A stretch of 64,000 nucleotides of DNA from an uncultured Pseudomonadota bacterium (GTDB lineage Bacteria > Oederibacteriota > Muellerivitia > Muellerivitales > Muellerivitaceae), in the NCBI GenBank assembly GCA_963836235.1, contig CAWIIP010000001.1, forward strand, positions 49,191 through 113,190. Reading direction: 5' to 3'. This document shows, piece after piece, positions 25,111-45,231 of the stretch. The notes under the pieces were generated by a model. That model had not been told where the DNA came from. It worked only from the letters and a program-made list of their open reading frames with translations, and ran no database searches. Within the stretch, counting starts at the first letter, position 1. Each line of letters starts with the position of its first letter. The position numbers were made by a program, and so were the translations under genes.

Positions 25111-27508
25111 TGGAATACCTCGATTTCAAGCCATCCACAATCTGGGATACTTTTTGGGCCACTTCCTGGTCGGTCAAGGTCCGTTCCTCGTTCAAGAATT
25201 GCATCCGGTAGGCGAGGCTTCGAACGCCGGTGGAAAGATGGGGGCCCCGATAAAGGTCAAATAAATGGACCTTTTTTAGATCCGGTTTTCCCATCTCTTC
25301 GATGGCCACCAAAACCTGGGTTGATGTTACACCATCCGGAACCATTAGGGCAATGTCCCTCCAAGCGGCGGGGAACTTGGGCAGGGGATGGTAGCTCTTG
25401 GAAGCCTGTGGAGCCTGTTGGAAAGCCTCGGGTTCTATTTCCAAAGCGAAAGCTGGAACGGAAATGTCATATTCCTTGAGGACTTTAGGGTGGAGGGCTC
25501 CGCCCCGGGCCAAAAGTTGTCCCCGCGGGGTCTTCACCTCGAAATTTTGAACCGGGTCATAGGGGGCCGACGCCGGTTGAAAGCTCCATTCGAATTCCGT
25601 AAGACCACAATTGGAGAGAATGCTTTCCACCAAGCCTTTGATATCGTAAAAGTCGGATTTTCGTTCCGGACTATGCCATTGGGCTTGGGAGGCCACTCCG
25701 GCCACAATCGCCGCCACCTGGATTCTTTCCGTAACCCGGCCCTCGGGACCGGGGGTGAAAACCTTATTCATCTCATATAGAGAAGCGGTTTCTTGCTGGT
25801 GGGAAAGGTTAAGCTGGATATTCGCAAGCAGGGAAGGCAGAAGCGATGGCCGTAAAACCCGCTGGTCGTCGGTGATGGGATTGGCGACTTCCTGAAACCG
25901 GCGTAAGGGGTGGTCTTCCGGCAGTTTGAGCTTTTGGGGAAAGGTTGAGGCCAAAAAAGTGGAATTGACCGCTTCATAAAAACCCGCTTGATGGAGGCTC
26001 GACCGGATTTCCTTTTCAAATGGGATCTCCGATCCGAGGGGAAAAAGAAAAGAAGGGATATTGGGGGAGACCACCGGGATTTTGTCATATCCGGAAAGCC
26101 GGGCCATTTCCTCGATCAGGTCGATCTCACGGGTCAAATCCAATCGATGGCTGGGGCATTGGACCGATAGCGTTTTGGATTTGGCGGTTCCTTTGACCTT
26201 GCATCCCAGGTTATTGAGAATTTGAATCTGAGTTTTGGCGGGTATCTCCAAGCCCAAAAGGGCATGAGTTCTTTGTGGCCGAAAGATAACCGGGGGATTT
26301 TTAATCGTCTTAGTCGAAACGGCGCCAATGCCCTTGGCTAAGTGGCCACCGGCCACTTCGAGAATCAGCGCAACGGCCCTTTCTAAGGCCGCTTGCACCC
26401 CTTTTGGATCCACGCCACGCTCGAAGCGGTAGGAAGAGTCCGTAGATATGCCGAAATGCCGCGCGGTTTTGCGCACACTACCCGGTAGAAATTGAGCCGA
26501 CTCCAAGAGGATATTTTGGGTTTGGCCGGTTACCTGGGAATTGCTACCGCCCATGATTCCGGCCAAGGCGATGGGACGGTCGGCATCGGCGATCACCAGC
26601 ATATGATCCTTCAGTTCGCGTTCCGTGCCGTCCAGAAGCGAAATTTTCTCTCCCTGGGCCGCTGTCCGCACGAGGATTTGACGGCCATGGATTTGTCCCA
26701 GGTCGAAAGCGTGAAGGGGCTGGCCGGTTTCCAAGAGGACGAAGTTCGTCACATCAACAATGTTGTTGATGGAACGTTGGCCCATTTTTTCCAAGGCTTG
26801 AGCCAGCCATTTCGGGGAAGGGCCTACTTTGACTTCCTCAATGGCTCGGCAGGTATAGAGGTGGCATAAATCTTTAGCTTCAATTTTAATGTGGATCAGC
26901 TTGGAGGTGGCGATGGAGCTTTCTTTGGGCTTCTTCGACTTGGGATATTGGACGGGTTTGTGGAAAAGGGCCCCCAATTCGCGCGCCACGCCCCAATGAC
27001 TTAAAAGGTCGGCACGGTTCGGGGTAATCTCGAGTACAAAAAGGGTGTCAGGTAAGCCCGAGTAGTTGAGAAACTCAGCCCCGAGGGGCGCATCGGGCGG
27101 CAAAATCAGGATACCTTCGGCATCTTCCGCCAAACCCAGTTCCTTGGCCGAACAAAGCATTCCAAAGGATTCGACTCCACGGATCTTGGCCGCCTTGATC
27201 TCGAAATTGCCCGGAAGAACGGCTCCCACTAAGGCCAGGGGCACCTTTTGCCCGGGCGCAATATTTTTAGCGCCGCAAACAACCTGGAAAGTTTCTTTTC
27301 CGGTGGAAACCTTGGTGAGGGATAGGCGATCGGCCTGGGGGTGTTTCTCAACGGACAAAAGTTCCGCCACCACCACGTGGGTGATGTCCCGGCCTAAGTG
27401 CTTGACGTTTTCAACCGCGACGCCCGCGTGGATCAACCGTTCGAGAACGGTTTCGACGGATTCTTTCAGCTGAATATATTGTTTAAGCCAGTTAAAAGAG
27501 ATGAGCAT
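25097..27508 (-). CDS. pheT: Phenylalanine--tRNA ligase beta subunit
   Basis: 803 aa; N-terminus MLISFNWLKQYIQL… typical of PheT; B3/4, B5 and FDX-ACB domain order consistent. Confidence 0.9.
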   Translation of the reverse strand: MLISFNWLKQYIQLKESVETVLERLIHAGVAVENVKHLGRDITHVVVAELLSVEKHPQADRLSLTKVSTGKETFQVVCGAKNIAPGQKVPLALVGAVLPGNFEIKAAKIRGVESFGMLCSAKELGLAEDAEGILILPPDAPLGAEFLNYSGLPDTLFVLEITPNRADLLSHWGVARELGALFHKPVQYPKSKKPKESSIATSKLIHIKIEAKDLCHLYTCRAIEEVKVGPSPKWLAQALEKMGQRSINNIVDVTNFVLLETGQPLHAFDLGQIHGRQILVRTAAQGEKISLLDGTERELKDHMLVIADADRPIALAGIMGGSNSQVTGQTQNILLESAQFLPGSVRKTARHFGISTDSSYRFERGVDPKGVQAALERAVALILEVAGGHLAKGIGAVSTKTIKNPPVIFRPQRTHALLGLEIPAKTQIQILNNLGCKVKGTAKSKTLSVQCPSHRLDLTREIDLIEEMARLSGYDKIPVVSPNIPSFLFPLGSEIPFEKEIRSSLHQAGFYEAVNSTFLASTFPQKLKLPEDHPLRRFQEVANPITDDQRVLRPSLLPSLLANIQLNLSHQQETASLYEMNKVFTPGPEGRVTERIQVAAIVAGVASQAQWHSPERKSDFYDIKGLVESILSNCGLTEFEWSFQPASAPYDPVQNFEVKTPRGQLLARGGALHPKVLKEYDISVPAFALEIEPEAFQQAPQASKSYHPLPKFPAAWRDIALMVPDGVTSTQVLVAIEEMGKPDLKKVHLFDLYRGPHLSTGVRSLAYRMQFLNEERTLTDQEVAQKVSQIVDGLKSRYSIALR

Positions 27509-27774
27509 TGGGGATCCGTAAAGAAGTATTGAAAAACCAGAAAAAACCTAAATTTTTAAGAAGTTTAGAGTAGAGCTTAGGGACTGTCAACAATAGCCGT
27601 CAGTGGGCCGATTGCCGCTCGCGGTTGATCGCAATGTCCAAGACAAGGAGACTTGGCTTGTTTTTTGATGATTTTCAAGAGTCGTGAATATATGCTGTCA
27701 CTTCTTAGACGCGGGTTTTTGTTCGCTGTGGGTCGCGTGCCCCGGCTTTCAGACGTATTTCACGAAAGGTGGTG

Positions 27775-28876
27775 ATGAGATTGGCGTTGTTCGAATTGGA
27801 CGTCAAGTCTCTGGAGAGAAAGTTTACCGAAGTGAGGGATCATCTTTGACCCCGCTCAAGTTAAGCGGGACATAGAGCGGCTCGAAGACCAGACCACCCA
27901 GCCCAAGTTTTGGGACGATCCTAAAAGTGCGCAGTCCGTGACCGCGCAATTGGCCCGGTTGAAAGACACCATGGCCTTGGTGCAGGATTTCGAGAAACAA
28001 TATCACGACCTGCTCACCTATAACGAATTGCTTAAGGAACAGCACGATCCCACCCTGATCGCCGAAATGGAGCAAAGCCACAAGAAGTTCGAAACGGACT
28101 TTCGCAACTTCGAGCTCAAGCGGAATTTCAGCGGCAAGTATGACTTCAATAACGCCTATGTTTCCATTCATCCCGGGGCGGGAGGCACGGAAAGCCAGGA
28201 CTGGGCTTCCATGCTTTTGCGCATGTACCTGCGGTGGATGGAATCCAAAGGCTATGAGGTAGAAACGCTCGATTACCAGGTGGCGGAAGAGGCGGGCATC
28301 AAATCCGTGTCCCTTTTCGTAAAAGGGCCCTGGGCCTATGGCTTTCTCAAAGTTGAGAAGGGTGTCCACCGATTGGTCCGTATTTCTCCCTTTGACGCCA
28401 ATAAACGCCGTCATACTTCCTTTTCTTCCGTCGACGTCATGCCGGAAGTGGACGATGTGGAGTTTGAACTAAGATGGGACGACATTAAGTTCGATACCTT
28501 TCGTTCGGGCGGCAAGGGAGGCCAGAACGTCAATAAGGTCGAGACGGCGGTAAGACTGACCCACATCCCCACGGGCCTCATTGTGGCCTGTCAGACCCAG
28601 CGCTCCCAGCTTCAAAATAAGGAACAGGCGTTGAAGATGTTGAAGGCCAAATTGTTCCAATATCACCAGGACCTGCATGACGAGGAGATGTCGAAGGTCG
28701 CCGGGGCCAAGAAAAAGATCGAGTGGGGAAGCCAGATTCGGTCCTACGTTTTCCAGCCCTACCAAATGGCCAAGGACCACCGCACGAACGTGGAAATGAA
28801 CGATATTAACCGGGTAATGGATGGGGATATCGATCCTTTCATCGAAGCGGCCCTCAAGGCCAAGTTAGTTGATTAA
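27775..28876 (+). CDS. prfB: Peptide chain release factor 2 (requires programmed +1 ribosomal frameshift at codon 25)
   Basis: Frame 0 from ATG 27775 (SD AAAGGTGG upstream) encodes [24 protein letters not shown] then in-frame TGA (27847-27849); +1 frame from 27848 continues [15 protein letters not shown]… into the main ORF with RF2-specific SPF motif (…[15 protein letters not shown]…) and GGQ (…[11 protein letters not shown]…). Confidence 0.85.
27834..27850 (+). promoter_or_regulatory. prfB autoregulatory +1 frameshift site (internal SD + CUU UGA C)
   Basis: Sequence GAGGGAU CAU CUU UGA C: SD-like element 3 nt upstream of the CUU slippery codon followed by UGA-C weak stop context, matching the canonical RF2 recoding site. 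Confidence 0.75.
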
Positions 28877-28923
28877 TTTTTAAATGTTATACTGGCTGTC
28901 CACTTCAAGGAGTTTTTTTAAAA

Positions 28924-30432
28924 ATGTCCGAACTCAACGAATTCATTAAAGTCCGTATCGACAAGTTGAAGGCGCTGAAAGAAAAAGGGATTAATCCCTA
29001 TCCTTCCGCGGCTTTCGCCATTAGCCGTCACTCGGCGGAAATTTTAGAAAAATACAAGGACCTTCAGGCCGGGGAACACAAAGAATCGGAGAAAGTCTCC
29101 ATAGCGGGAAGATTGATGACTATTCGAGGAATGGGGAAAAGTTCTTTCGCCCATATTCTCGATAGCCTTGGAAAGATCCAGATATACGTTAAAAAAGACG
29201 GCGTGGGTGAAAAGGCCTACGAAATCTTCAATTTATTGGATTTGGGAGACATCATCGGCATCAAAGGATTTCCTTTTAAAACAAAAACCGGCGAAGTCAG
29301 TATCCATGTCGAGTCTTTTGAAATCCTCTGCAAGTCCCTGCATCAGTTGCCGGAGAAGTGGCATGGCCTCACCGATGTCGAGGCCCGTTACCGCCATCGT
29401 TACGTGGATTTGATCGTCAATGACGCGGTCCGAAAGACTTTTGAAACCCGTTCTAAAGTTGTTGGAGCTATGCGCAAACACCTGGATGGAACGGGGTTTC
29501 TAGAAGTAGAAACCCCCATGATGCATCCCATCCCCGGCGGGGCCGCGGCCAAGCCCTTTTTGACCCATCACAACGCGTTGGATATGGATTTATTCCTGCG
29601 AATCGCCCCGGAACTTTATTTGAAACGACTTTTGGTGGGTGGTTTCGAGAAAGTTTATGAGATCAACCGCAATTTCCGCAATGAAGGCATCAGTATTAAG
29701 CACAATCCCGAATTCACCATGCTGGAGGCTTACCAGGCCTATGGGAACAATGAGACGGTAATGGCCCTGACCGAACAACTTTTGGCTGAAGCGGCCAAAG
29801 CCGCCGGGCAAGGCGTCAAGATTACGGTGGGTGATACCGAGTTAGACTTCACGCCTCCTTTTAAACGGATTCCACTTTTTCGGGCTTTGGAAGAGTTTGC
29901 TGGAATCGAATATGACGAAATCTCGATGGACGACTTGAAGAAACGATTGAAAACGACGGCCGCCCAGGTAAAGCATGTGGATTCCTTGTCTAAGGCTGAA
30001 CTGGCTTACCTTCTTTTCGGAGAGTTGGTGGAACCCAACTTGATTCAACCGACTTTTATCACCGATTTCCCGGTCGAAGTTTCACCGCTGGCCAAAGCCA
30101 AAACCGACAATCCCGAATTGACGGAGCGATTCGAACTTTTCATTTTGGGGCGTGAAATCGCCAATGGATTTTCCGAGTTGAATGACCCGATTGACCAGCG
30201 CCGCCGTTTTGAAAAACAAGTGGAATTGCGCAAGGCCGGGGACGAAGAAGGGATGTTTCTTGACGAGGACTTCATCCTGGCCCTTTCTTACGGCATGCCG
30301 CCCGCGGGAGGTGTCGGCATCGGAATCGACCGTCTTTTGATGCTTCTGACCAACAGCCCCTCCATCCGTGATGTCATCCTATTTCCGTTACTGCGTCAAA
30401 AGGATGACACTGAAAAAATGATATTTGAATAA
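28924..30432 (+). CDS. lysS: Lysine--tRNA ligase (class II)
   Basis: 502 aa; OB-fold anticodon-binding N-domain and class II motifs (…FRNEGISIKHNPEFTMLEAYQAY…, …GGVGIGIDRLLMLL…); downstream of prfB as in the conserved prfB-lysS arrangement. Confidence 0.9.
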   Translation: MSELNEFIKVRIDKLKALKEKGINPYPSAAFAISRHSAEILEKYKDLQAGEHKESEKVSIAGRLMTIRGMGKSSFAHILDSLGKIQIYVKKDGVGEKAYEIFNLLDLGDIIGIKGFPFKTKTGEVSIHVESFEILCKSLHQLPEKWHGLTDVEARYRHRYVDLIVNDAVRKTFETRSKVVGAMRKHLDGTGFLEVETPMMHPIPGGAAAKPFLTHHNALDMDLFLRIAPELYLKRLLVGGFEKVYEINRNFRNEGISIKHNPEFTMLEAYQAYGNNETVMALTEQLLAEAAKAAGQGVKITVGDTELDFTPPFKRIPLFRALEEFAGIEYDEISMDDLKKRLKTTAAQVKHVDSLSKAELAYLLFGELVEPNLIQPTFITDFPVEVSPLAKAKTDNPELTERFELFILGREIANGFSELNDPIDQRRRFEKQVELRKAGDEEGMFLDEDFILALSYGMPPAGGVGIGIDRLLMLLTNSPSIRDVILFPLLRQKDDTEKMIFE

Positions 30433-30471
30433 ATCCCATTTACTACTTTTGAATTTTGCTGAAGAGGTTGG

Positions 30472-31725
30472 ATGAAATACCCATTTGAAATCTTCCTCGG
30501 GCTTCGCTATCTCCGTTCCAAGCGTAAGCGCTCGGCCATTTCCATTCTCACTTGGCTTTCGGTTTTGGGCGTGGCCATTGGCGTGATGGCTCTCAACGTC
30601 GTTTTATCCGTCATGAATGGTTTCGATGAGGATTTAAAATCAAAGATCGTCGGGCTTAATGCCCATATCATCGTATCCGGTTTCCAAAACAGGCCTCTTT
30701 CCGACTACGATCAAATCACTCAAATCATTAAAAAAATGGATCATGTGAAGGCGGTGGGGCCTTACATGGAAGGCCAAGCTCTCGCCCGTTCGCGGGAACG
30801 TTCCCTGGGGGTCATGGTATGGGGAATCGACCCGGACGCGCCCCAAGCTATCGCGGATTTGAATAAGTACTTATGGCAAGTGAAAGCCACGGCTCTTAAA
30901 AACCCTTTCGCCGATGGTTCGGGTAGGGGTGAAAGGATTTTCTTGGGGGCGGAATTGGCCCGCCGCCTTCAGGTTAGTGTGGGGGATGATTTAATTCTTT
31001 TCCTCCCAATCCTTCAACAAACCCCCCTGGGTATGATGCCCAAGAGCATGAAATTCCAGATTGTGGGGTTGTTTTCAACCGGGATGTACGACTATGACGA
31101 GGCCTATACCTATGTTTCAATCGAAAACGGGCAAAAGATGTATCAATTCACGAATAACGTGACGGGAGTGGCTATCAAGGTAGACAACGTGGATCAGGCG
31201 CCAGAGGTAGCCAAGGCCATCCGAGAAAGGTTCGAGGGCCGGTATTTCGTCCAGGACTGGCTCCAAATGAACCATAATCTTTTCGTGGCGCTTCAAACGG
31301 AGAAGTGGGTGATGGGCATCATTCTTTCCCTCATCGTCCTGGTGGCATCCCTTAATATCATCAACCCCCTAACCATGATGGTCATCGAGAAGACAAAGGA
31401 AATCGGCATCTTGAAGGCCATGGGCGCGACCGACCGGAGCGTAATGTCCATTTTTATTTTCGAGGGCATGTTCATTGGCGTCATCGGTATTATCGTTGGC
31501 TTGATAGGCGGTTTCGTACTTTGCGAGATTATCGCCAGGGTGCCGATCCCTATGCCGGGCGGGGGAATGGTTTATTACATCGACCGACTGCCGGTAAAGG
31601 TTGATCCCAAAGTTTGTTATTTCATTATCCCTGTGATGTCGGTCCTGCTTTGTTTTATTTCGACTCTTTATCCCGCGCGACAGGCGGCCAAGCTGGAGCC
31701 GGTCGACGCTATCCGCTACAGTTAA
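30472..31725 (+). CDS. Lipoprotein-releasing system permease (LolC/LolE family, FtsX-like)
   Basis: 417 aa; N-terminal TM, large periplasmic MacB-like domain, C-terminal FtsX 3-TM bundle; followed by lolD. Confidence 0.78.
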   Translation: MKYPFEIFLGLRYLRSKRKRSAISILTWLSVLGVAIGVMALNVVLSVMNGFDEDLKSKIVGLNAHIIVSGFQNRPLSDYDQITQIIKKMDHVKAVGPYMEGQALARSRERSLGVMVWGIDPDAPQAIADLNKYLWQVKATALKNPFADGSGRGERIFLGAELARRLQVSVGDDLILFLPILQQTPLGMMPKSMKFQIVGLFSTGMYDYDEAYTYVSIENGQKMYQFTNNVTGVAIKVDNVDQAPEVAKAIRERFEGRYFVQDWLQMNHNLFVALQTEKWVMGIILSLIVLVASLNIINPLTMMVIEKTKEIGILKAMGATDRSVMSIFIFEGMFIGVIGIIVGLIGGFVLCEIIARVPIPMPGGGMVYYIDRLPVKVDPKVCYFIIPVMSVLLCFISTLYPARQAAKLEPVDAIRYS

Positions 31726-31732
31726 GGGACTT

Positions 31733-32413
31733 ATGGAAATCCTCAAAGTCGACAACGCGACCAAGACTTACCATATGGAGGGCGAAGAAGTACGTGCCCT
31801 TCGGGACGTCAGCTTTTCATTGGATGCGGGCGATATTACGGTCATTCTTGGTCCTTCAGGTTCCGGAAAGAGCACCCTTTTGACCCTCATGGGGGGCTTG
31901 GGCAGTCCGTCCGAGGGTAAGGTGTATTGTAAGGGAAAGTCCCTTTACGACATGAACGGCGAGGAATTGGCTTTTTGGCGCAACAAACTTTTCGGATTCA
32001 TATTCCAGTTCCACCACTTGATGCCGGAGCTTACCGCGTTGGAAAATGTCATTTTGCCGGGCCAAATAGCCCGCAAAGAATATGAAGACTGCCGGGTGAG
32101 GGCGGAGAAACTTTTGGCCCATGTTGGATTAAGGGATCGGATGACCCACAAACCAGGGGAATTGTCCGGCGGAGAACAACAGAGAGTGGCCGTATGCCGG
32201 GCTTTAATGAATGAGCCGGAAATTATCCTTGCCGACGAACCAACAGGCAATCTGGACGTCAAAACGGCGGAGGGAATCCATGATGTGCTTTGGGAGCTAT
32301 GTCAAAAAGAGGGGCGGACGTTGATTGTGGTGACGCATTATGAGCCCCTTGCCAAACGGGCGGATCAAATATTAACCCTCAACGCGGGGCAAGTTGTTAA
32401 GAAGAGAACTTAA
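31733..32413 (+). CDS. lolD: Lipoprotein-releasing system ATP-binding protein (ABC ATPase)
   Basis: Walker A GPSGSGKSTLL, ABC signature LSGGEQQRVAVCRAL, Walker B ILADEPTGNLD. Confidence 0.82.
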   Translation: MEILKVDNATKTYHMEGEEVRALRDVSFSLDAGDITVILGPSGSGKSTLLTLMGGLGSPSEGKVYCKGKSLYDMNGEELAFWRNKLFGFIFQFHHLMPELTALENVILPGQIARKEYEDCRVRAEKLLAHVGLRDRMTHKPGELSGGEQQRVAVCRALMNEPEIILADEPTGNLDVKTAEGIHDVLWELCQKEGRTLIVVTHYEPLAKRADQILTLNAGQVVKKRT

Positions 32414-32434
32414 AACTAATTTTTTGGAGTTTTT

Positions 32435-33001
32435 ATGCTTTGTCAAAGATGTCAACAACGCCAAGCCACTGTTTTTTTCTCGCAGACCATCGGTAACCAA
32501 ACGACCCAGGCTCATTTGTGCGAAGTTTGTGCCCGGGAGCAAACCCAGGGATATGGCGGCATGAGTCCTTTTGCTTTTAATCCCTTTTCCGCCCTCTCGG
32601 ATTTTCTCAATAATTTCATGAATTGGAACGAGGGCGCTATCGCCGAAGTGAATTCGGGGCGGACCGGTTCGGTGGCGGTCGATCCCCAACTCCAATGTCC
32701 CTATTGTGGTTACCAACTTTCAACTTTCCGGCAAAATGGCCGCTTGGGATGCACCAAGTGTTATGAATCCTTTAAGAGCGCCCTGCAGCCTTTGATTTCC
32801 AGCATTCACGGAAATGTCCAACATGTTGATGAGGGTGTGGACTTGAAAAAACCCGAAAATCAAGCAGCGGCATCGGGGGAAAATATTTCAAGCCCTGAAA
32901 TCAAGGCTTTGAGGGAGAAACTAAAACAACTCATTGCGAGCGAAAAGTTCGAGGATGCGGCCCGTTTGCGGGATCAAATCAAAAACTTGGAGAATGACTA
33001 A
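32435..33001 (+). CDS. mcsA: Protein-arginine kinase activator McsA (zinc-finger + UVR domain)
   Basis: Four CxxC pairs (CQRC, CEVC, CPYC, CTKC) and C-terminal UVR-like motif (…EKFEDAARLRDQIKNLE…); immediately upstream of mcsB-clpC. Confidence 0.75.
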   Translation: MLCQRCQQRQATVFFSQTIGNQTTQAHLCEVCAREQTQGYGGMSPFAFNPFSALSDFLNNFMNWNEGAIAEVNSGRTGSVAVDPQLQCPYCGYQLSTFRQNGRLGCTKCYESFKSALQPLISSIHGNVQHVDEGVDLKKPENQAAASGENISSPEIKALREKLKQLIASEKFEDAARLRDQIKNLEND

Positions 33002-34063
33002 ATGGCTTTCGAGGACCTGTTGGCTTGCGAAGATGACTGGTTCCTGAAAACGGGGCCTTCCTGCGATGTGGTTGTTTCCAGCCGAGTGCGACTCGCCCGC
33101 AACTTAGAGGGAAGGAAGTTTCCTCATCACGCCAGCGCAATCGAGCAAAAACTGGTGGTGGATGAAGTACAAACCGCAGTTGGAACTCTATCACAAGCCA
33201 ACGGTCTCAAGTTCGTCCGCTTAAATGAAATTTCCTCCCTTGACCGCCAATTTTTGACGGAACACCAACTGATCTCCGCCGAACACGCGGCAAGCTTGGG
33301 GGAAAGGGCCGTTGCTTTTGATTCCAAGGAGGGCCTGAGTTTTCTCATCAATGAGGAAGATCATTTGAGACTTCAGGCATTCCGGACCGGGTTGAACCTG
33401 AAGGAAGCCTTTCAGTATTTGACGCAAATCGACCAGAACCTCGGCCAAAAGCTTCAATATGCCAAAGATACGCAATTGGGTTACCTAACCGCCTGTCCGA
33501 CCAATCTGGGGATGGCTCTACGAGCCAGCGTGATGCTCCATCTTCCGGCTCTGGTTTATACCAACCGGGCGGCCCAGGTTTTTCAGGGGGTCACCCAGGT
33601 TGGTTTGACAGTCCGGGGTCTTCAAGGAGAAACGACCCAGGTGGCCAGCGCCTTTTTCCAAATTTCCAACCAATCCTCACTTGGTAAAAGGGGGGTAGAG
33701 ATCGTCGACCATGTGGACCGGGTCGCCCACCAATTGGTGGAAGTGGAACTACAAACCCAAAAAGCTGTTTTCCAACAAGAAGGCCTAAAGCTTCAGGATC
33801 GCATTTGTCGGGCGCTGGGTACCCTTCGGAGCGCTAAAATTATTAGCCTTCAGGAAGCTTTGGACGGGCTTTCGGCTATCCGAGTTGGGGTGGAGCAAAA
33901 GATTTTAACCGGCATCGACTTGCCAAAACTCAACAGTCTTCTGATCTTGATACAACCGGCCCACTTAGCCAAAATTGCGGCACGGGAGTTAAACCCGGAG
34001 CAGGAGGCGATGGAAAGAGCGGGGATTTTAGGGATGTATTTGAAGACAGCTGAAGCAGCTTAA
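33002..34063 (+). CDS. mcsB: Protein arginine kinase McsB (ATP:guanido phosphotransferase family)
   Basis: 353 aa; phosphagen-kinase-like core with …VVSSRVRLARNLEGRKFP… and …CPTNLGMALRASV… (conserved Cys-Pro-Thr-Asn-Leu-Gly catalytic loop). Confidence 0.85.
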   Translation: MAFEDLLACEDDWFLKTGPSCDVVVSSRVRLARNLEGRKFPHHASAIEQKLVVDEVQTAVGTLSQANGLKFVRLNEISSLDRQFLTEHQLISAEHAASLGERAVAFDSKEGLSFLINEEDHLRLQAFRTGLNLKEAFQYLTQIDQNLGQKLQYAKDTQLGYLTACPTNLGMALRASVMLHLPALVYTNRAAQVFQGVTQVGLTVRGLQGETTQVASAFFQISNQSSLGKRGVEIVDHVDRVAHQLVEVELQTQKAVFQQEGLKLQDRICRALGTLRSAKIISLQEALDGLSAIRVGVEQKILTGIDLPKLNSLLILIQPAHLAKIAARELNPEQEAMERAGILGMYLKTAEAA

Positions 34064-34218
34064 CGACCGCTCATAGTTTGCGCTTACAAGTTGGTCAACA
34101 GGAACCGGAATTTAACCCTGATGGACTCAAATCCATCCGGCAATTATGACTCTAATCATTGATTTATGGGCCTAATTCAGTTGAAATAGGCCGCAAGCCA
34201 TCCTTTAAGGAGAAAGCC

Positions 34219-36669
34219 ATGTTCGAAAGATTCACCGAACGAGCTAAAAAAGTCATTAACCCATTGGCGAAGGAAGAAGCCCGCCGACTGAACCACAATT
34301 TTATAGGAACCGAACATCTTTTGTTGGGTCTCATTCGTGAAGGCGGCGGAGTCGCCGTTGCCGTTTTGGAATCCTTGGGTGTGGACTTGGAATCCGTTCG
34401 GATTGAAGTGGAAAATCTAACAACACCTTCCTCAGATACCTTAACCATCGGTGACCCTCAATTTACCCCCTCGGCCAAAAAGGTATTGGAATTGGCTGCC
34501 GAGGAATCCCAGAAATTGGGCCACAACTATATTGGTACCGAGCATTTGTTGCTAGGACTGATCCAGGAAGGAGAGGGCGTGGCTGCCCGCGCCTTGGAAA
34601 ACCTGGGTGTTACCTATGAGAAGTCCCGCGACATGGTCATTAACCTTTTAGGCGGAACCTTTCCGAAATTTTCAAAACAAGTCAAAAAATCCAAGACTCC
34701 GGCTCTCGACACTTTTGGCAGGGATTTGACCCAAATGGCTAAAGATGGAAAACTGGACCCGGTCATAGGTCGTGAGGATGAAATCGAACGGGTGATCCAA
34801 ATTCTTTCCCGCCGCACAAAGAATAACCCGGTGCTCATTGGGGAACCGGGTGTAGGGAAAACGGCCATTGCTGAAGGCTTGGCGCAACGGATTAAGGAAG
34901 GTAATGTTCCCGAATTGCTACTAGATAAACGCATTGTGACCTTGGATTTGGCGGCCCTCGTGGCCGGGACCAAATACCGTGGGGAATTCGAAGAACGGTT
35001 GAAGGCCGTCATTAACGAAATCCGCCAATCGGGGAAAGTCGTTCTTTTCGTGGATGAGCTTCATACATTAGTAGGAGCGGGCGCCGCCGAGGGAGCCATT
35101 GACGCCTCCAATATGTTGAAGCCTGCTTTGGCCCGTGGGGAATTGCAATGCATCGGAGCCACGACCCTCAATGAATATCGAAAATACATCGAGAAGGATG
35201 GCGCCTTGGAGCGCCGTTTTCAAATGATTATGGTCGATGAGCCCTCGGTAGACGAAACTATCCAAATTATTAAGGGTTTGAGGGACCGCTATGAAGCCCA
35301 TCACCGCGTGCGTATTACGGATGATGCCATTGTGGCCTCGGCCCAATTGTCCCATCGTTACATCTCCGGCAGATTTCTTCCGGATAAGGCTATTGATTTG
35401 ATCGATGAAGCGGGAAGCCGTACACGACTTCGCATAACGACCATGCCTCCTGAAATTCGAACTTTAGACAAAGAAGTGGAAAAGATTAAGCAAGAGAAGG
35501 AAGAAGCTATCAAGACCCAGGAGTTTGAAAGGGCGGCAGATTTGCGCGATAAAATGAAAAAAATGCGCCAAAAGCTGCAGGAAGAAAAAGAAAAATGGGA
35601 AAACATGAAATCCAAGGAAGAGGCGGTTGTTACTTGGGAAGACATTGCTTATGTCGCCTCCAAGTGGACGGGAATTCCCATGATCAAGCTGGGTGAAAAG
35701 GAAAGCGAGAAGCTTTTGCGCATGGAAGAAGAGCTCCATAAGCGCGTGGTGGGACAGGAAGAGGCTATCGTGGCCGTTTCCAAAGCCATTCGCCGCAGCA
35801 GGGCCGGGATCGGAAATCCCAAAAAACCGATTGGAAGTTTTATGTTTATGGGACCGACGGGTGTTGGAAAGACCGAATTGGCCCGGGCTTTGGCTCAGTT
35901 CCTTTTTGATGACGAGGATGCTTTGATTCGTTTTGACATGAGCGAATACATGGAAAAATTCAACGTGTCGCGTCTGGCGGGAGCTCCACCGGGATACGTG
36001 GGACACGACGAGGGCGGCCAATTGACCGAGAAGGTTCGGCGGAAACCCTATAGCGTGGTTCTTTTTGACGAGATTGAAAAGGCCCATCCGGAAATCTTTA
36101 ATGTCATGTTACAAATCTTAGAGGACGGGCGTTTGACCGACAGTTTGGGACGGGTGGTGGATTTCCGCAACACGGTTGTCATCATGACCAGCAACCTAGG
36201 CGCAAGGGAAATGGGGATTGAAAGGAATCTTGGTTTCAACCCCGATGGCGCTGAAATGTCCTTTGAAAGCATGAAAACAAAAATCCAATCCGAATTGAAG
36301 AAAGCCTTTAATCCGGAATTTCTGAACCGGGTGGATGACATCATTGTTTTCCATCCTCTGGAAAAGTCCCACATTGAAAAGATCGTGGACATACAACTTG
36401 AGGACGTTCAGAAACGTCTAAAAGACAAGAGCATCACACTGGCGCTCGAAGCCTCGGCCCGGGATTTTCTGATCGAAAAGGGTTACGACAAGGTCTATGG
36501 CGCTCGCCAGATGAAGCGATCGATTCAAAAATATGTGGAGGACGCTTTGGCCGAGGAACTATTGCGCGGAAACATTAAAGAAGGTGCCAGCGTTGTTTTG
36601 AAGTCGGCTGGCGACAAATTAGAGTTCGTTTCCGGCGAGGTTAGGCCTGCGTCTGCCGCTACCGTTTGA
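34219..36669 (+). CDS. clpC: ATP-dependent Clp protease ATP-binding subunit ClpC
   Basis: Start ATG 34219 (SD AAGGAGAAA); Clp-N repeats, two AAA+ modules ([16 protein letters not shown]), UVR-like linker; ORF track start 34159 is upstream of the RBS. Confidence 0.9.
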
Positions 36670-36682
36670 AACGAGGTAGGGC

Positions 36683-39600
36683 ATGAAAGCGAAGCCTGAA
36701 GCCGATTCCGGCTTCGTAAAGGCGACGCCGGACAATAGGGATAAGCCGAGAAAATTTCAGCGACTTCGCTGGGTTCTCTTGATCATGGCGATTTTAACCG
36801 GGGCTTTTTTGTTCTTTCAATACCGGATCGTCGATACCCAACTCCGGCCGATCATTGAAAAGCAGTTGGCCCAGGCCGTTCATTCTCCTGTATCCATCGG
36901 TTCGGTCAGGGCCGGGCTTACCGGCAATGTGGTTTTGAACCATGTTTCCCTAATGGTTCCCGGATCCCCTTGGGAAAGTCGGTTGGTCGTCGAACAAATT
37001 TCGGTCAGTGTTGACCTGTTCAGTCTGTTATTCCACCGAAAACCCCTGGAAGATTGTTTTGAAAGCTTGTTTTTTCTCCATCCCGATATTGTTTTGGTGA
37101 AAAATATAACATCTCCGGTCCCGTTAGCCGGTCTTTCCGGATCAGCGACCGTCGTTGCTCCAGCGGTGACCGTCCCCATTCCAGTATTTCCTGTTCCCAA
37201 AATTTCAGTTCGGGAAGGCTCTTTTTCAATCCAGGCGGAGAAAACGCCCCGTGAGGTTCTACATGGCTTAAACTTTAGCGCAGCCACCGATAATGGCGCC
37301 ATCTGGGGACTTTCGCTCTTGGCCCATTCTCCTGAAGCTGGAAGCCAGGGAATCGTCCAATTTGATGGCAGCCTTCGATTGGAAGATTTGAGAGTGAGAG
37401 GGGTTACGAAATTACACCAGTGGCCCCTTGCCTCCACCAGTTCGACTTTAAAAGATACTACCGGGTGGGAATTATCTTCGGGGACAATCGATATGGAATC
37501 GCCGGTAGTCCTCCAACCAGGCCGGCCCATTTGGTTTGACGCCAAAGCGGACTTGTCTCAAGCAGTCCTTAAATCACCTAATCCCGTTGGGGTTACTTTC
37601 GCACAAATCACCGGCCGGGCCATGATTCGCCCTAATGAGGTGACAGTTCCGGGTGAAATCAAGTTCCAGGTTGGGGAAACCCCTTGGCGTGCCTCAGGTC
37701 TTATCCCTTTTGATGGCCGTCCTCTTTCCGTCCGTACTTCCACAGATGAATTATTTCTCTCAAGCGTTTTTGAGGATATTTTGAAGTTAAAAGACATGAA
37801 AGCGGGTGGAAAAGGTTCCGCCACGCTATCGGTTGCCGGGACTTTTTCAAATCCCATTATCGATGGAACGGCCCAATTGGGTCCTTCCAGCGTAGGGGAT
37901 TGGCAGTTGGATTCCTTAAGTCTGAAAGCGGGCTACGAAAACGGGCAGTTTCAATTGAAAGAAGCGGACGGACAACTCTACGAAGGAACTTTGACGGCCA
38001 ATGGATTCTTGGCCTTATCGGGACAACCCGACGCTCCCGTATCACTCAATGTAAACCTGGTAAATGTTGAGGCTGAAAAAGTCGCATCGACTTTAGGAAT
38101 ATCGGGAACCGAAGGTCGGATTGATCAGGAAGTCCACATTGGTGGATCGATGGAAAAACCGATTATTTCTTCTAGTGGCCAGATGGAGTTGGCTCGTACT
38201 TTGAGGAACACCCTCTTCCATTACTCCATTCGCAATAACGTTCAAATGAAAGATCAAAAACTCCAAATTTCGGCCACCATAAATGATAAATCCCGTTTGG
38301 AAGGTCTTTTTGATGAAAAAACAGACTATTGGGAGCTTCAAAAGTTTTCGATTATGGCTGGGAAAAAAATCGTAAAACTGGTTGGAACCGGCGTTTTGCC
38401 TAAATCAGATGATAAACCCATGCAAATTGAGGTTTCTGGAAAGGATATACCCATCGAGAATCTGCCTTTCTTTAACGACCAGTTTCAAGATATTACCGGA
38501 AAGGTAAATTTAGATTTCCAGGCCTCCGGCACTCGAAAGGAACCCCGAGAATTAGTTCATCTTGTCTCTGATGCGGTAACTATAAAAACCATCAGTGACG
38601 AGTCAACGTCCGCGGAGGTTGAGTCTTATTCTTTAGAGGCCTTGCTGTCCTGGGAACCTGATGAAGTAAAATTTCAAAAATTAACAATCGGAGATCCCTC
38701 CAATGAAATATTTTCAGCTGTTGGATATCTTGGACGAAAGCCGGAATCATCAAATGACCTAAAAGTCACAGCCAATGGGTTTCCTATCCAGCATATTGCT
38801 GAAATCACCCAATGGAATAATCCACCTCAACCTTTTGAGGGGTCGGTCACGGGGCATATGCATATTTCCGGTTCGGCCGACAACCCAATCGTGGAGGGAG
38901 ATGATATTGGGATTGAAGATTTGAAAGTTGGGGATTGGCATGCCGCAAAAGTGGCGGCTTCCTTGAACATGGAAGATGGAAAACTCCATTTCAAAAAGTT
39001 AAAACTAGATCAAGGATTGGGTTTCCTTGCCGCTAGCGGCTCATGGGATACGAAGGCTCAGCCCGGGATATTGACACTTCGGTTTTCGATGACCGAATTT
39101 CAGTTGGGGAGCGGACCTTATCTTTCCGGCGATTTTCTTTTGGATGCGAAAACCACCGGAGATCCCTTCTGGCAAAACTGGAATGGCAACTTTTCGACCA
39201 CCGCATTCGATTTGAGGGATTTAAAAAACAAAACCTATCATTTTAATAATTTTTCCATGGCGGCCGTTTTTGCCGACATGGTGTTAAAAGGAAGATTAAC
39301 GCTGGGTAAAGCCATTGATGGATCGGCAATTTTGGACCTATCCGGAACGGTTCCCACCGTCCAAGCGGATTTGAAAATACAACCATCCCTGCTTTCGGAA
39401 GTGCCCGAACTTATCCAGTTTTTACCCCCCTCCTTAAAAGTTGCGGGGTACATTTCGGGAGGCATAAAACTGAAACAAGGGACCTTAGAAGAACTTCCGA
39501 TAGAGGGGTCTGTGTCTGTTACAAATGGAAAAATTCAAAAGTATAGCTTTGACCGCATGGGGTTCAACTTTAATGGTGGAAAGACGAAGGTTTCTTCCAG

Positions 39601-42589
39601 TTTCACGCTGGCGCGAGGCGAGGCTAGTTATAATCTCGCCGGGACTCTTGAATCGGCTCGAGCCATTTGGGATCCAGACAGCAAGATTGATGTTAATGGG
39701 CCTGTTGAAAAGGAAAAACTTCAAAATATTCTCGCTCTTTTGGGAATTGATACTGAAAAGCATAAAGTTGGAGGCGAGGTCAATGGAAATTTGTCCATTA
39801 CCGGACTTTTAGCCAGCCCCGTTGTTGGCTTTTCAGTTACGGGACAAAATTTAAGATACGACAATAATATCTTTCCTTCGGCTGAATTGCATTTTTCGGC
39901 CGCCGATGGAAAAATTAATTTGGAAAAAAACAAGATAACGTTGCCAAAAGGCCAAGTAAATATTGACAGCGGAAACGCCTACTTGGACCCAAAGGATTCA
40001 ACCGTTGTTGTGATGGACCTGCGGGGATCCACCCAAAATTTGCCTATCGCTGTTTTTGACCTGACAAGTCAAATCCATTTATCCGGTCGTCTAGCGCTTG
40101 AAGAAAAAGAAACGCGCCCAACTTTTGATGGGCTTCTTTCTATCATCGAATCGGGGCAGGATCCCAAAAACATCGTTCCTTTTGACTTGGCTTTAGGTGT
40201 TCATAACAAAATAATTGATTTCAAACCTTTAGACAGCACCGAAGCCCAGTTAGTGGGTCGGTTAGACCTTTCCGAGGATGGGAAAATCATTTTTAAGGAT
40301 TTGCACCTTTTGAATACCGTCGGTTCTTTTACCGTTGACGGAACTTTAGATTTCAATGGACCCTGCCAATTAGTTTCAGACGCGAAAGATGTACCGATTC
40401 AAGAAGTTTGGAAATGGATTTTCCCCAAGTTTCCATTGAGCGGAACCGGCAATTACCATCTTATTTTAAATGGAACATTGGATGATCCGTTGTTTACCAA
40501 TTCTATCTCCGTCTCCAATGGAAAAGTTGGTGACCTGAATTTTGACCTTTTGAATGGTGAAATAAAATCCCATGATAACACCCTTTACTTTGGGACTAAG
40601 GACAGTCCGCTTATGCTAAGCCGGAAGGGGCAATTTACCTTCACCGTGGGAGGCAAAATGCCATTTGCCATGACCACGGCTAGTTGGCTTAAAGTTCAAA
40701 ATCACGAAATGGACATTACAGCCAATATGGATCAAGGCGATTTTGGCATCATTCTTCTGGCGGGTTTTGCGAAACAGGCGTCGGGTAGTATGGATTTTTC
40801 AGCCCATGTTGGGGGAACACTTGATAATCCAAATGTCATCAGCATGGACCTGGATTTAAATAAATGTCGGTTGGTTCCTGAGATTGTGGCGCAATCAATT
40901 GAGGATATCAGTGGACGAATTAAGATTCGGAACAACCACTTAGGTGTTGAGGACCTTAATGGACGAATTGGACAAGGCCGCGTTTTTATCACTTCGGATC
41001 CTGTTGAAAAAAGCAAAATGGTTCTGGAAAATTTTATCCCCCAATATTTGGATTTTCACGTTCGAACGGTTGGGGATCATGGCTTATGGCTTAGCATTCC
41101 AACTATTATGAAAAAAGGAGAATGGGGTGAAATTTATTTTTATGGTTCCAGCCCCGATGATGACATGCTTGTCAAGGGGTCGTTGGAAGAGCCTCATGTC
41201 ATTGGAACGGCTTTTTTGGATACAGGCCATTTTACCTTTCCGCCGGAACCGGCGGTTGATGAACATGGGAAACCAATCGAGTACCGGGAATTGGCTGGAG
41301 TTTATTTTCAGTTAAAACTGAAAGCCGGAAAAAACACTTGGTATTCCAATGACTTTGATACTCAATATTTGGAGTTGAAGGTTGATCCCGGTGATGAAAT
41401 TTCCATTGAGGGAAAAGACGCTGATCGTACACTCGAGGAAGCAGGAATCAAGTGTGTTGGTGAGGCTGGGTCCAAGCAAGGCTGGCTCCGGTATTTGGGA
41501 CATGAGTTTCAATTGGAGGAGGCGACTCTCCATATTCCAAAAGGGAAACCCCCCATTATGCAGGGGCGTGCGACAGATCGTCTTAGGGGAATTGAAGTTC
41601 CGTCGGCAGGAGGGGTTCAGAAGACCGACATGGATATATGGGTTGATTTCAACGGATCTTTTGGAAAAATCGACTTTACCCTTGATTCAAACCCTCGATT
41701 CAGCATGACTGATAAGGACATACAACAAAAGTTATTACTTTCTTATATCATGTTTGGCCGTGACATGACCGGGTATACAAGTCAACAGCTGCAACAGTAT
41801 TTTCAGCAAAATAACGGTCAAGTGGTCAGCGATTCTCTTCTCGAGACATTCGATCGTATTTCATCAAGTCAAGCCACACAGTTACTGAGGCCATTAGGGC
41901 AAAAGCTTGGTGGAATTGATATGACGGTCGACGCCAATCTCGGTAGCGCTCTTTACGGTAGTAATCAAAATAATTCTTCAGTTACCACAACGGGCGGAGT
42001 ATCCCAAGTTGTTCCGGTGGGCCAGGCTAATAATGTAGTAGGAGCGACTGTTCCGTTGGTCCAGGTTAAGATTATCAAACCGCTTGATAGTAAGCTTTCA
42101 ATTTTAGCCGTTCCAGGAGTTAACCGGGATTCTTTGACGGGAATTGCTGGCCTGCAGGGACAATTTGGTCTTCAGTACGATTTGTCCCGTAATTTGAACC
42201 TCAACGCAACCACGGGTGCAAATGATATTGGTCAGCAGGAAACAAAAGTTGGATTTGAACTTCACCAATCTTTGCCTGATATTATGAGTCCGAAAAAGGG
42301 CGACACAGTCAAACCTCATTTTGAAAGAACCGACGCTTACACCATTGGAACTGGCAAATATCAGCTTATCTGGGTCACGGATAAAGTAACGAGGAGCGAA
42401 GTAAAGATAGTGGATGAAAATGGGCAGGTGGTTCAAGATGTTTCTGAAAATACTGAACACGAATACGACCATCAGATGATTGTGGATAAACTAAATCCAG
42501 CCGCAGACTACAAGGTTGAAATCTTGGTCAAGGATTTAAACGAAAACGAAAACGAAGCTATTTTAAAGATTTCCGCTTCAGAAGATTAA
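36683..42589 (+). CDS. Giant TamB/AsmA-like translocation and assembly module protein
   Basis: 1968 aa; N-terminal signal-anchor TM, very long beta-rich repetitive body, C-terminal region with TamB/DUF490 character; located directly upstream of bamA. Family assignment from architecture and context, not a database hit. Confidence 0.62.
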   Translation: MKAKPEADSGFVKATPDNRDKPRKFQRLRWVLLIMAILTGAFLFFQYRIVDTQLRPIIEKQLAQAVHSPVSIGSVRAGLTGNVVLNHVSLMVPGSPWESRLVVEQISVSVDLFSLLFHRKPLEDCFESLFFLHPDIVLVKNITSPVPLAGLSGSATVVAPAVTVPIPVFPVPKISVREGSFSIQAEKTPREVLHGLNFSAATDNGAIWGLSLLAHSPEAGSQGIVQFDGSLRLEDLRVRGVTKLHQWPLASTSSTLKDTTGWELSSGTIDMESPVVLQPGRPIWFDAKADLSQAVLKSPNPVGVTFAQITGRAMIRPNEVTVPGEIKFQVGETPWRASGLIPFDGRPLSVRTSTDELFLSSVFEDILKLKDMKAGGKGSATLSVAGTFSNPIIDGTAQLGPSSVGDWQLDSLSLKAGYENGQFQLKEADGQLYEGTLTANGFLALSGQPDAPVSLNVNLVNVEAEKVASTLGISGTEGRIDQEVHIGGSMEKPIISSSGQMELARTLRNTLFHYSIRNNVQMKDQKLQISATINDKSRLEGLFDEKTDYWELQKFSIMAGKKIVKLVGTGVLPKSDDKPMQIEVSGKDIPIENLPFFNDQFQDITGKVNLDFQASGTRKEPRELVHLVSDAVTIKTISDESTSAEVESYSLEALLSWEPDEVKFQKLTIGDPSNEIFSAVGYLGRKPESSNDLKVTANGFPIQHIAEITQWNNPPQPFEGSVTGHMHISGSADNPIVEGDDIGIEDLKVGDWHAAKVAASLNMEDGKLHFKKLKLDQGLGFLAASGSWDTKAQPGILTLRFSMTEFQLGSGPYLSGDFLLDAKTTGDPFWQNWNGNFSTTAFDLRDLKNKTYHFNNFSMAAVFADMVLKGRLTLGKAIDGSAILDLSGTVPTVQADLKIQPSLLSEVPELIQFLPPSLKVAGYISGGIKLKQGTLEELPIEGSVSVTNGKIQKYSFDRMGFNFNGGKTKVSSSFTLARGEASYNLAGTLESARAIWDPDSKIDVNGPVEKEKLQNILALLGIDTEKHKVGGEVNGNLSITGLLASPVVGFSVTGQNLRYDNNIFPSAELHFSAADGKINLEKNKITLPKGQVNIDSGNAYLDPKDSTVVVMDLRGSTQNLPIAVFDLTSQIHLSGRLALEEKETRPTFDGLLSIIESGQDPKNIVPFDLALGVHNKIIDFKPLDSTEAQLVGRLDLSEDGKIIFKDLHLLNTVGSFTVDGTLDFNGPCQLVSDAKDVPIQEVWKWIFPKFPLSGTGNYHLILNGTLDDPLFTNSISVSNGKVGDLNFDLLNGEIKSHDNTLYFGTKDSPLMLSRKGQFTFTVGGKMPFAMTTASWLKVQNHEMDITANMDQGDFGIILLAGFAKQASGSMDFSAHVGGTLDNPNVISMDLDLNKCRLVPEIVAQSIEDISGRIKIRNNHLGVEDLNGRIGQGRVFITSDPVEKSKMVLENFIPQYLDFHVRTVGDHGLWLSIPTIMKKGEWGEIYFYGSSPDDDMLVKGSLEEPHVIGTAFLDTGHFTFPPEPAVDEHGKPIEYRELAGVYFQLKLKAGKNTWYSNDFDTQYLELKVDPGDEISIEGKDADRTLEEAGIKCVGEAGSKQGWLRYLGHEFQLEEATLHIPKGKPPIMQGRATDRLRGIEVPSAGGVQKTDMDIWVDFNGSFGKIDFTLDSNPRFSMTDKDIQQKLLLSYIMFGRDMTGYTSQQLQQYFQQNNGQVVSDSLLETFDRISSSQATQLLRPLGQKLGGIDMTVDANLGSALYGSNQNNSSVTTTGGVSQVVPVGQANNVVGATVPLVQVKIIKPLDSKLSILAVPGVNRDSLTGIAGLQGQFGLQYDLSRNLNLNATTGANDIGQQETKVGFELHQSLPDIMSPKKGDTVKPHFERTDAYTIGTGKYQLIWVTDKVTRSEVKIVDENGQVVQDVSENTEHEYDHQMIVDKLNPAADYKVEILVKDLNENENEAILKISASED

Positions 42590-45206: not shown

Positions 45207-45231
45207 ATTCAACCAGTAAGTGCAACACCTA
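45207..45231. repeat. IS30-family left terminal inverted repeat
   Basis: TTCAACCAGTAAGTGCAACACCTAG; core matches the reverse complement of 46223-46247. Confidence 0.5.

Follow-up and report, generated by a model that had tools for sequence, protein, structure and literature searches.

CtsR and phospho-arginine (pArg)-driven self-assembly of the kinase McsB are the two control layers central to the usual picture of pArg-dependent protein degradation. The closest described systems are those of Bacillus subtilis and Geobacillus stearothermophilus, where the genes stand in the order ctsR-mcsA-mcsB-clpC and belong to the class III heat-shock genes, and in the literature the pathway is still presented as a Gram-positive one (PMC11046695, PMC8370763). 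Among diderms, Chlamydia trachomatis keeps McsA (CT676), McsB (CT675) and ClpC, with no CtsR described, and casein phosphorylated on arginine is a degradation substrate of its ClpCP in vitro (PMC10128030, PMC11708050). Chlamydial mcsAB form a tRNA-flanked operon apart from clpC and have been suggested to be horizontally acquired (PMC10128030). Here we describe mcsA, mcsB and clpC in a 64-kb stretch of contig CAWIIP010000001.1 (hereafter the window), from a soil bacterium with an outer membrane that belongs to the phylum-rank candidate lineage FCPU426. Taking both parts of the interpretation together, we think it likely that these genes make up a functional McsA-McsB-ClpC pArg degradation module in a diderm and that, as composition, synteny and identities suggest, the module was inherited with its chromosomal neighborhood and not borrowed recently from Firmicutes. 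A scan of a genome collection with McsB returned 35 loci for comparison. Twenty-six of them are related FCPU426 loci (60-95% McsB identity), which reach as far as 10 kb to either side of mcsB when the contig is long enough. The majority bear the label 'candidate division FCPU426', and a few are named only uncultured bacterium or proteobacterium.

The original prediction, made from the sequence of the window, was that an mcsA gene with four CxxC pairs and a UVR motif, mcsB and clpC are contiguous at 32435-36669, and Pfam, structure and full-length alignments bear this out. The order of the three genes is that of Bacillus and Geobacillus. The gene for the arginine-kinase activator, mcsA (32435-33001, + strand), encodes 188 amino acids with the Zn1-Zn2-coiled coil layout of the Bacillus/Geobacillus protein: two Cys4 zinc fingers, with CxxC pairs at residues 3/6, 29/32, 88/91 and 107/110, and a C-terminal UVR/coiled coil (UVR PF02151, 3.7e-9). 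The product can be aligned over its entire length with B. subtilis McsA (PDB 8wtb_B, 6.7e-26; 33% identity). All eight zinc cysteines are invariant in FCPU426 (25/25) and in sequences from other lineages (11/11), and Y103, H118 and H124 are also kept in FCPU426. The start codon of mcsB (33002-34063, + strand) abuts the mcsA stop codon (33001/33002). Its product, a protein-arginine kinase of 353 amino acids, is 37% identical to B. subtilis McsB and matches the solved McsB structures 8wtb, 6tv6 and 6fh1 over both domains (residues 11-343, E ~1e-68); an exact-sequence lookup of the window protein returned no record. The catalytic residues of McsB had been named beforehand as a point on which the prediction could fail. 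They are retained: in an alignment of 78 FCPU426 sequences with 46 others (Omnitrophota, Planctomycetota, Firestonebacteria, Opitutales, Bacillota and B. subtilis), N119, E120, the catalytic E121 and D122 of the NEEDH motif, and C167 of the CPTN motif, are present in 78/78 FCPU426 sequences, and H123 in 71/78 (Q in the other seven). Among the others NEEDH varies hardly at all (N119 in 44/46), and C167 is found in 46/46.

ClpC (34219-36669, + strand; 816 amino acids) is an AAA+ unfoldase with two Clp_N repeats, AAA, AAA_lid_9, AAA_2 and ClpB_D2-small domains, and a UVR motif at residues 437-471 of the open reading frame (Pfam). It aligns with B. subtilis ClpC in a single full-length alignment of 1090 bits; ClpB matches in two stretches. 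As in Bacillus and Geobacillus, the protein has two AAA modules and a short M-domain with UVR, and the features by which ClpC reads the pArg tag and docks on ClpP are recognizable. Both GTEH motifs align to B. subtilis and hold the glutamates equivalent to E32 and E106, the crucial determinants of the pArg sites (PMC12583610), and the ClpP-docking LGF loop reads 'ERNLGFNPD', aligned to 'KYVGFNVQ' in B. subtilis. The identity and the end of the gene stand as predicted, but the start had been placed at 34159, where the open frame has its earliest TTG. The gene begins instead with the ATG at 34219, which is conserved in all 27 aligned loci and preceded by a Shine-Dalgarno sequence AAGGAG (34207-34212, + strand), which is conserved in them as well. 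Two peculiarities of clpC may be recorded here. Every FCPU426 ClpC N-terminus that was read carries a one-residue Pro insertion in the first helix of the N-domain (window 34219-34260), where B. subtilis has QKVLALAQEEA. In L001, a 95%-identical relative in a long-read-looking assembly, clpC is broken into three frames.

The catalytic domain of McsB (PF00217, ATP-gua_Ptrans, 7e-60, residues 52-250) lies in the phosphagen-kinase superfamily, and weaker matches to arginine and creatine kinases are found, so the enzyme might be read as a kinase of free arginine or a guanidino compound that serves energy buffering and does not act on proteins. We find this hardly credible. The N-terminal helical domain of phosphagen kinases is absent, the full-length alignment with solved McsB takes in the C-terminal dimerization domain, and PF27454 (McsB_C) is recorded on P0001, a protein 93% identical to the window McsB. 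The enzyme is moreover translationally abutted to McsA, which structurally replaces that N-domain, without the specificity loop (PMC11046695). Public annotation already calls the Omnitrophota and Planctomycetota homologues 'protein arginine kinase'.

The catalytic core is accompanied by changes in its control surfaces. In B. subtilis the pArg receptor site of McsB, composed of R337, D338, R341 and S285, drives oligomerization and auto-activation; pArg binding stimulates the kinase, and the multimers of an R337A/D338A mutant collapse to dimers (PMC8370763). To judge by the alignment, FCPU426 McsB has lost this pocket. R337 is present in none of the 78 FCPU426 sequences compared with 44/46 others (E in the window), D338 in 1/78 compared with 44/46 (A in the window), and S285 in 0/78 compared with 38/46 (L in the window). 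The columns of R337 and D338 are gapless and clear, and that of S285 could be one residue off, with a neighboring serine in many FCPU426 sequences. R341 is the only receptor residue kept (75/78 in FCPU426, 45/46 in the others), and the R194 switch of the Bacillus enzyme is missing too. With the pocket lost, the kinase would have to be controlled by McsA, by the level of its expression or by another factor.

The contact between McsA and McsB has changed in a different manner. In the described complex a basic loop of McsA, L3, meets an acidic surface of McsB, with K127 of McsA contacting E233 and N143 of McsB (PMC11046695). The L3 motif H-x-G-K-x-P is stable in other lineages, where G126, K/R127 and P129 are found in 11/11 sequences, but FCPU426 McsA has H-x-[D/E]-[D/E], with D or E at position 126 in 22/25 and at 127 in 23/25. 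On the other side of the contact, E233 of McsB is present in 46/46 other sequences and in 0/78 of FCPU426, which has gained K231 and R/K232. By these alignments the K127-E233 contact is charge-swapped relative to Bacillus, in a reciprocal and compensating way. Since the contact is one defined by crystallography, its reversal of charge speaks well for McsA and McsB still forming a complex.

The surroundings of the module are those of a diderm. Nine co-directional genes on the + strand form an unbroken run from 27.8 to 45.2 kb of the window: prfB, the first gene of the conserved run, for release factor 2 (27775-28876; TIGR00020, 459 bits); lysS for lysine-tRNA ligase (28924-30432; NF001756, 708 bits); a gene for a lolCE-type lipoprotein-release permease (30472-31725; TIGR02212, 374 bits, above the cut-off of 362); one for a lolD-like ABC ATPase (31733-32413; best match TIGR02211 with 263 bits, below the cut-off of 308); mcsA, mcsB and clpC; a gene for a giant AsmA/YhdP/TamB-like envelope protein of 1968 amino acids (36683-42589); and bamA (42808-45174; TIGR03303, 536 bits), with five POTRA domains and an Omp85 domain. 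The placement of the module behind lolC/E-lolD was therefore right, as was bamA downstream, but 'tamB' is a loose name for the gene between. AsmA/TamB-like describes it better, since only the Pfam AsmA match (34.8 bits) is above threshold, with YhdP and DUF748 below their cut-offs. It starts 13 nucleotides (nt) past the clpC stop codon and is syntenic in those FCPU426 loci that reach so far. The diderm context holds across the 26 related loci: the order pheT(-)/prfB-lysS-lolCE-lolD-mcsA-mcsB-clpC-tamB-like-bamA is found in every one long enough to show it. In Bacillus, by contrast, clpC is followed by radA-disA, and the module is not set among lol, AsmA-TamB and bamA genes. Unlike in Chlamydia, as the papers describe it, the three genes of FCPU426 are contiguous and syntenic across the phylum.

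Part of this neighborhood is found in other phyla. Five Omnitrophota-like loci (L036, L037, L038, L115 and L117) have the order (secA-lnt-)lysS-lolCE-lolD-aminotransferase IV-mcsA-mcsB-clpC-unknown-mlaE. They resemble FCPU426 in having lysS-lolCE-lolD upstream, no ctsR, and envelope genes downstream, and these common upstream genes, lysS being syntenic in both groups, mean that the link of lysS and lol to mcsAB-clpC crosses phylum boundaries. They differ in the aminotransferase IV gene between lolD and mcsA, in an mcsB-clpC spacer of just 16-53 nt that lacks the FCPU426 element described below, and in downstream genes, which are mlaE/F/D (with radA in L038) where FCPU426 has tamB-like-bamA. 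Their proteins, unlike those of FCPU426, retain the pArg receptor R-D and YGEG loop of McsB, McsB E233 and the McsA G-K-x-P motif. After mlaE, L038 continues with mlaF-mlaD-radA and a gene for a PIN protein; radA in this place is reminiscent of the clpC operon of B. subtilis. In Firestonebacteria, Opitutales and one Planctomycetota locus, mcsA-mcsB-clpC stand together but the lol genes are missing. We take lysS to lie just upstream of ctsR-mcsA-mcsB-clpC-radA-disA in B. subtilis as well, although a literature search for lysS-ctsR adjacency found no paper. If this order is right, ctsR holds the place that lolCE-lolD take in these diderms.

A Firmicute clpC operon gained recently by horizontal transfer, landing among outer-membrane genes and losing ctsR en route, would account for the Firmicute order mcsA-mcsB-clpC and for the high similarity of ClpC to B. 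subtilis ClpC. It would also suit the presence of mcsAB in some FCPU426 contigs and its absence from the same locus in others, as for a mobile cassette. Such a transfer is nevertheless very unlikely. The composition of the module is that of its flanks (GC content is flat at about 0.50 across the region), and the whole neighborhood is kept across the phylum while McsB falls to 60% identity (ClpC 88-95%, McsB 60-95% and McsA 48-86% within FCPU426). Outside the phylum the closest McsB and McsA are Omnitrophota-like, at 43-47% and 32-39% identity, compared with 37% and 30-33% for Firmicutes, and the upstream lysS-lolCE-lolD context is common to the Omnitrophota-like loci. The sole mobile-element gene nearby is a strain-specific IS30-like transposase gene downstream of bamA. 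Flat composition, phylum-wide synteny and Omnitrophota-like affinity together argue against recent transfer from Firmicutes.

The absence of ctsR from the upstream region, as originally predicted, extends to all FCPU426 loci. A tblastn search with a CtsR probe (validated on L033) found no match in the window, nor in any FCPU426, Firestonebacteria, Opitutales or Planctomycetales locus; a nearby ctsR gene with its operator had been named as an observation that would tell against the prediction, and none was found in the window or the loci of up to ±10 kb. In L033, the sole Bacillota locus and hence the positive control, the probe did detect ctsR (44% identity), right in front of mcsA. A Pfam scan of the 53 called open reading frames of at least 70 amino acids in the window found no CtsR, low-molecular-weight phosphatase or ClpP domain. 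The expectation that no clear tandem heptad operator would be present likewise held. Searching the window for (A/G)GTCAAA-N3-(A/G)GTCAAA with up to 2 mismatches gave 4 matches, where 2.7 are expected by chance, and none stood in a promoter position or upstream of mcsA or clpC. At up to 1 mismatch no CtsR box was found near mcsA or clpC in any FCPU426 locus, while the Bacillota control has a perfect box, GGTCAAAGATAGTCAAA, 50 nt upstream of ctsR.

That the regulation of the module might differ from that in Bacillus, as had been suggested, is borne out in outline: no conserved element stands upstream of mcsAB, and clpC is preceded by a strongly conserved promoter-like block of its own. The end of lolD is 21 nt from the start of mcsA in the window. 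Across the loci, lolD-mcsA spacers range from 0 to 515 nt, but most are short (30 nt or less in 11/24 loci, the window included) and share no conserved block, so mcsAB are most simply read through from lolCE-lolD, and read-through from lolD is probably how they are transcribed. The mcsB-clpC spacers (30-309 nt) cannot be aligned save for the block right before the clpC ribosome-binding site. In the window this candidate clpC promoter and/or operator occupies 34155-34192 (+ strand; ATCATTGATTTAT-N13-TTGAAATAGGCC) and can be read as TTGATT (34159-34164), a 17-nt spacer and TGAAAT (34182-34187), with the end of TGAAAT 32 nt before the ATG. Scored with a weight matrix of the block, the window copy reaches 54.6 bits and the next best match in the window 6.5 bits. 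The block is present in 22/26 related loci, one copy per locus, at 17-56 bits (most 34-56); in the four most distant loci it has diverged or is missing. Its geometry is promoter-like: the pheT and prfB promoters delimited by the same alignment approach, TTGACA-N17-TAAACT and TTGATG-N17/18-TAWAWG, have the same -35/N17/-10 arrangement. Given the 13-nt gap, clpC and the AsmA/TamB-like gene may be co-transcribed.

Other descriptions of the block were tried and set aside. A conserved RNA hairpin was considered, but pairing between the spacer and the sequence downstream is found in some loci (GGCCTA/TAGGCC in the window, TCAACC/GGTTGA in L034) and not in most, and an Rfam scan of 27400-37000 (E up to 1) returned no RNA family. 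Reading GTTGAAA as a sigma-32 -35 element was rejected, since the required -10 would sit in an unconserved stretch abutting the Shine-Dalgarno sequence. A consensus promoter and terminator scan of the region did no better than expected from shuffled sequence and did not pick up the conserved block. When metagenome contigs were searched for TTGATTTAT-N8-TTC-N3-TGAAATA, 76 matches were obtained; 8 are FCPU426 clpC upstream regions, and no other target gene was found in the lineage. The remaining matches are unrelated AT-rich or coding sequence, or sites such as one upstream of leuA in another organism. Among them, in L065, L088 and L103, a two-box pattern (CTTGATTTATCCCTCGTTTTCCTCTGAAATAAC) lies 25 nt upstream of a 2-isopropylmalate-synthase-like open reading frame of a GC-rich soil organism, an indication that in other organisms TTGATTTAT/TGAAATA can act as an ordinary promoter. 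A recurrent family of near-identical sequences (GGTTGATTTATTNCTGRAATTCTATTGAAATATTCGTT) also matched the motif (L046, L056, L058, L061, L064, L066, L067, L069, L072, L074, L077, L081, L082, L090, L106 and L113). It lies within an opposite-strand open reading frame of unrelated metagenome organisms and is treated as a chance match.

The independence of clpC from the kinase pair is seen in three FCPU426-type metagenome contigs (L042, L060 and L101), in which lolCE-lolD are followed by about 200 nt, the block, and then clpC-tamB-like-bamA-surE. No mcsA or mcsB, and no recognizable remnant of either, is present at these loci. The block of these contigs most resembles the one in L012, a locus with mcsAB, so the presence or absence of the pair varies among fairly close relatives. 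By gene content, then, ClpC and its control element are independent of McsAB.

These contigs bear on the possibility that McsAB and ClpC are functionally uncoupled, their adjacency being historical. McsB would then be a regulatory kinase or stand-alone adaptor, acting for example on the envelope-biogenesis or translation factors encoded nearby, and the main role of ClpC would be that of a chaperone or of a partner to other adaptors. The seemingly separate transcriptional inputs of mcsAB and clpC, the variation of the mcsB-clpC spacers from 30 to 309 nt, the dispensability of mcsAB at the locus in lineages where clpC and its element stay, and the loss of the pArg receptor pocket of McsB all favor such uncoupling, as does the report that chaperone activity of Chlamydia ClpC is not raised by B. 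subtilis McsAB (PMC10128030). We consider uncoupling as a whole unlikely, if not to be dismissed lightly. The ClpC N-domain retains both pArg-site glutamates and ClpC is under very strong purifying selection (88-95% identity). Adjacency of mcsAB and clpC is found in FCPU426, the Omnitrophota-like loci, Firestonebacteria, Opitutales and one Planctomycetota locus, and degradation by chlamydial ClpCP needed casein to be arginine-phosphorylated (PMC10128030).

We therefore return to a coupled pArg degradation module, whose parts are observed to be conserved and whose individual steps are carried over from the Bacillus/Geobacillus system. McsA would bind McsB through its second zinc finger and the following loop and activate it, and McsB would phosphorylate arginines of client proteins. 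The two pArg pockets of the ClpC N-domain would bind the tag, and ClpC would unfold the client and pass it to ClpP via the LGF loop. Control would operate without a CtsR derepression loop and without pArg-driven self-assembly or auto-activation of McsB. Expression of mcsAB would be tied to the housekeeping run prfB-lysS-lolCE-lolD, that is, to translation and lipoprotein export. In turn clpC, probably with the AsmA/TamB-like gene, would be under its own unusual conserved element, which suggests a dedicated sigma factor or regulator.

Several points weigh against this interpretation. The working of the module in FCPU426 is read from sequence. Searches with YwlE and ClpP probes (tblastn), together with the Pfam scan, found neither ClpP nor a YwlE-type pArg phosphatase within the 64-kb window, and the absence of CtsR is established for the window and the surrounding loci, so that a copy may exist elsewhere in the genome. 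The lolD-block-clpC contigs indicate, from their gene content, that in some members of FCPU426 ClpC is independent of McsAB. The YGEG active-site loop of McsB, near-invariant elsewhere, is QGE[T/S] in FCPU426 (Y210 in 0/78 sequences compared with 44/46 others; G213 in 0/78 compared with 46/46), and with this altered loop activity or specificity could differ. McsA falls below its NCBIfam equivalog cut-off (NF053706, 128.4 compared with 210), as does McsB (NF002194, 368.1 compared with 385; NF053707, 315.3 compared with 500), scores that are consistent with a divergent subfamily. As to the clpC block, its -10-like hexamer TGAAAT has a G where sigma-70 promoters need an A, the block could be an operator or RNA-level element and not a promoter, and neither the matrix scan of the window nor the metagenome motif scan found a second copy that would define a regulon. 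Conservation also reaches past the hexamers, to TTTAT and to TTC in the spacer; taken with the unusual -10, this makes it plausible that a dedicated sigma factor or an activator is involved, or that an operator overlaps the block.

Other features of the window are recorded here in their own right. The intergenic region between pheT and prfB carries two phylum-conserved divergent promoters, one for pheT at 27562-27590 (- strand) and one for prfB at about 27665-27700 (+ strand; TTTTTTGATGATTTT...TAWAWG), which give a first picture of FCPU426 housekeeping promoters. The prfB gene has a programmed +1 frameshift: the ATG at 27775 is read in frame 0 to CTT TGA C at about 27843-27849, with a Shine-Dalgarno-like GAGGGA before it, and the frameshift site GGGATCATCTTTG is kept in 16/17 aligned related loci. 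Between bamA and surE lies a gene for an IS30-like transposase (HTH_38 and rve; 45209-46189, - strand), which is absent from all related loci. Since surE directly follows bamA in L060 and L101, the gene is a strain-specific insertion. Farther downstream, purL for FGAM synthase II is split into overlapping open reading frames (49965-51656 and 51646-52050) by a frameshift or by a fault of assembly. At 16466-17689 (+ strand) lies a gene for a GH5 cellulase; a single-cell genomics study of cellulose degraders is said to mention FCPU426.

A diderm with McsAB and ClpC and no reported CtsR is not new in kind, as Chlamydia trachomatis is a precedent. To our knowledge, from the literature searched, what is new is the phylum, the phylum-wide Lol/TamB-like/BamA synteny (of which Omnitrophota have a part), the lost pArg pocket of the kinase, the charge swap, the clpC element and the polymorphism of mcsAB. 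A more far-reaching reading, for which we see only a slim chance, is that pArg-ClpC in FCPU426 and the Omnitrophota-like lineages is wired to outer-membrane biogenesis and not to a heat-shock repressor, mcsAB sharing a transcript with the Lol lipoprotein exporter and clpC with the AsmA/TamB-like lipid transporter. Were it true, the module would clear lipoproteins, outer-membrane proteins or envelope precursors that fail export, the regulator of the non-canonical clpC promoter or operator, in place of CtsR, would be the regulatory substrate of the kinase, and the pocket-less McsB would represent a simpler, McsA-only mode of control.

The coupled pArg module that we favor has consequences for the family as a whole. 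A diderm candidate phylum keeps the catalytic core, composed of McsA, McsB and the pArg pockets of ClpC, without either control layer, at least at this locus; neither CtsR nor pArg-driven self-assembly would then be universal to the system. The trio of kinase, activator and unfoldase is found widely among diderms, independently of CtsR. As a compensatory pair that arose in nature, the charge-swapped contact of McsA and McsB lends support to the interface seen by crystallography and could be of use in engineering. The presence or absence of mcsAB beside an unchanged clpC block offers a comparative handle on what McsAB contribute to ClpC, and the conserved clpC element gives a concrete starting point in the search for the regulator that takes the place of CtsR.

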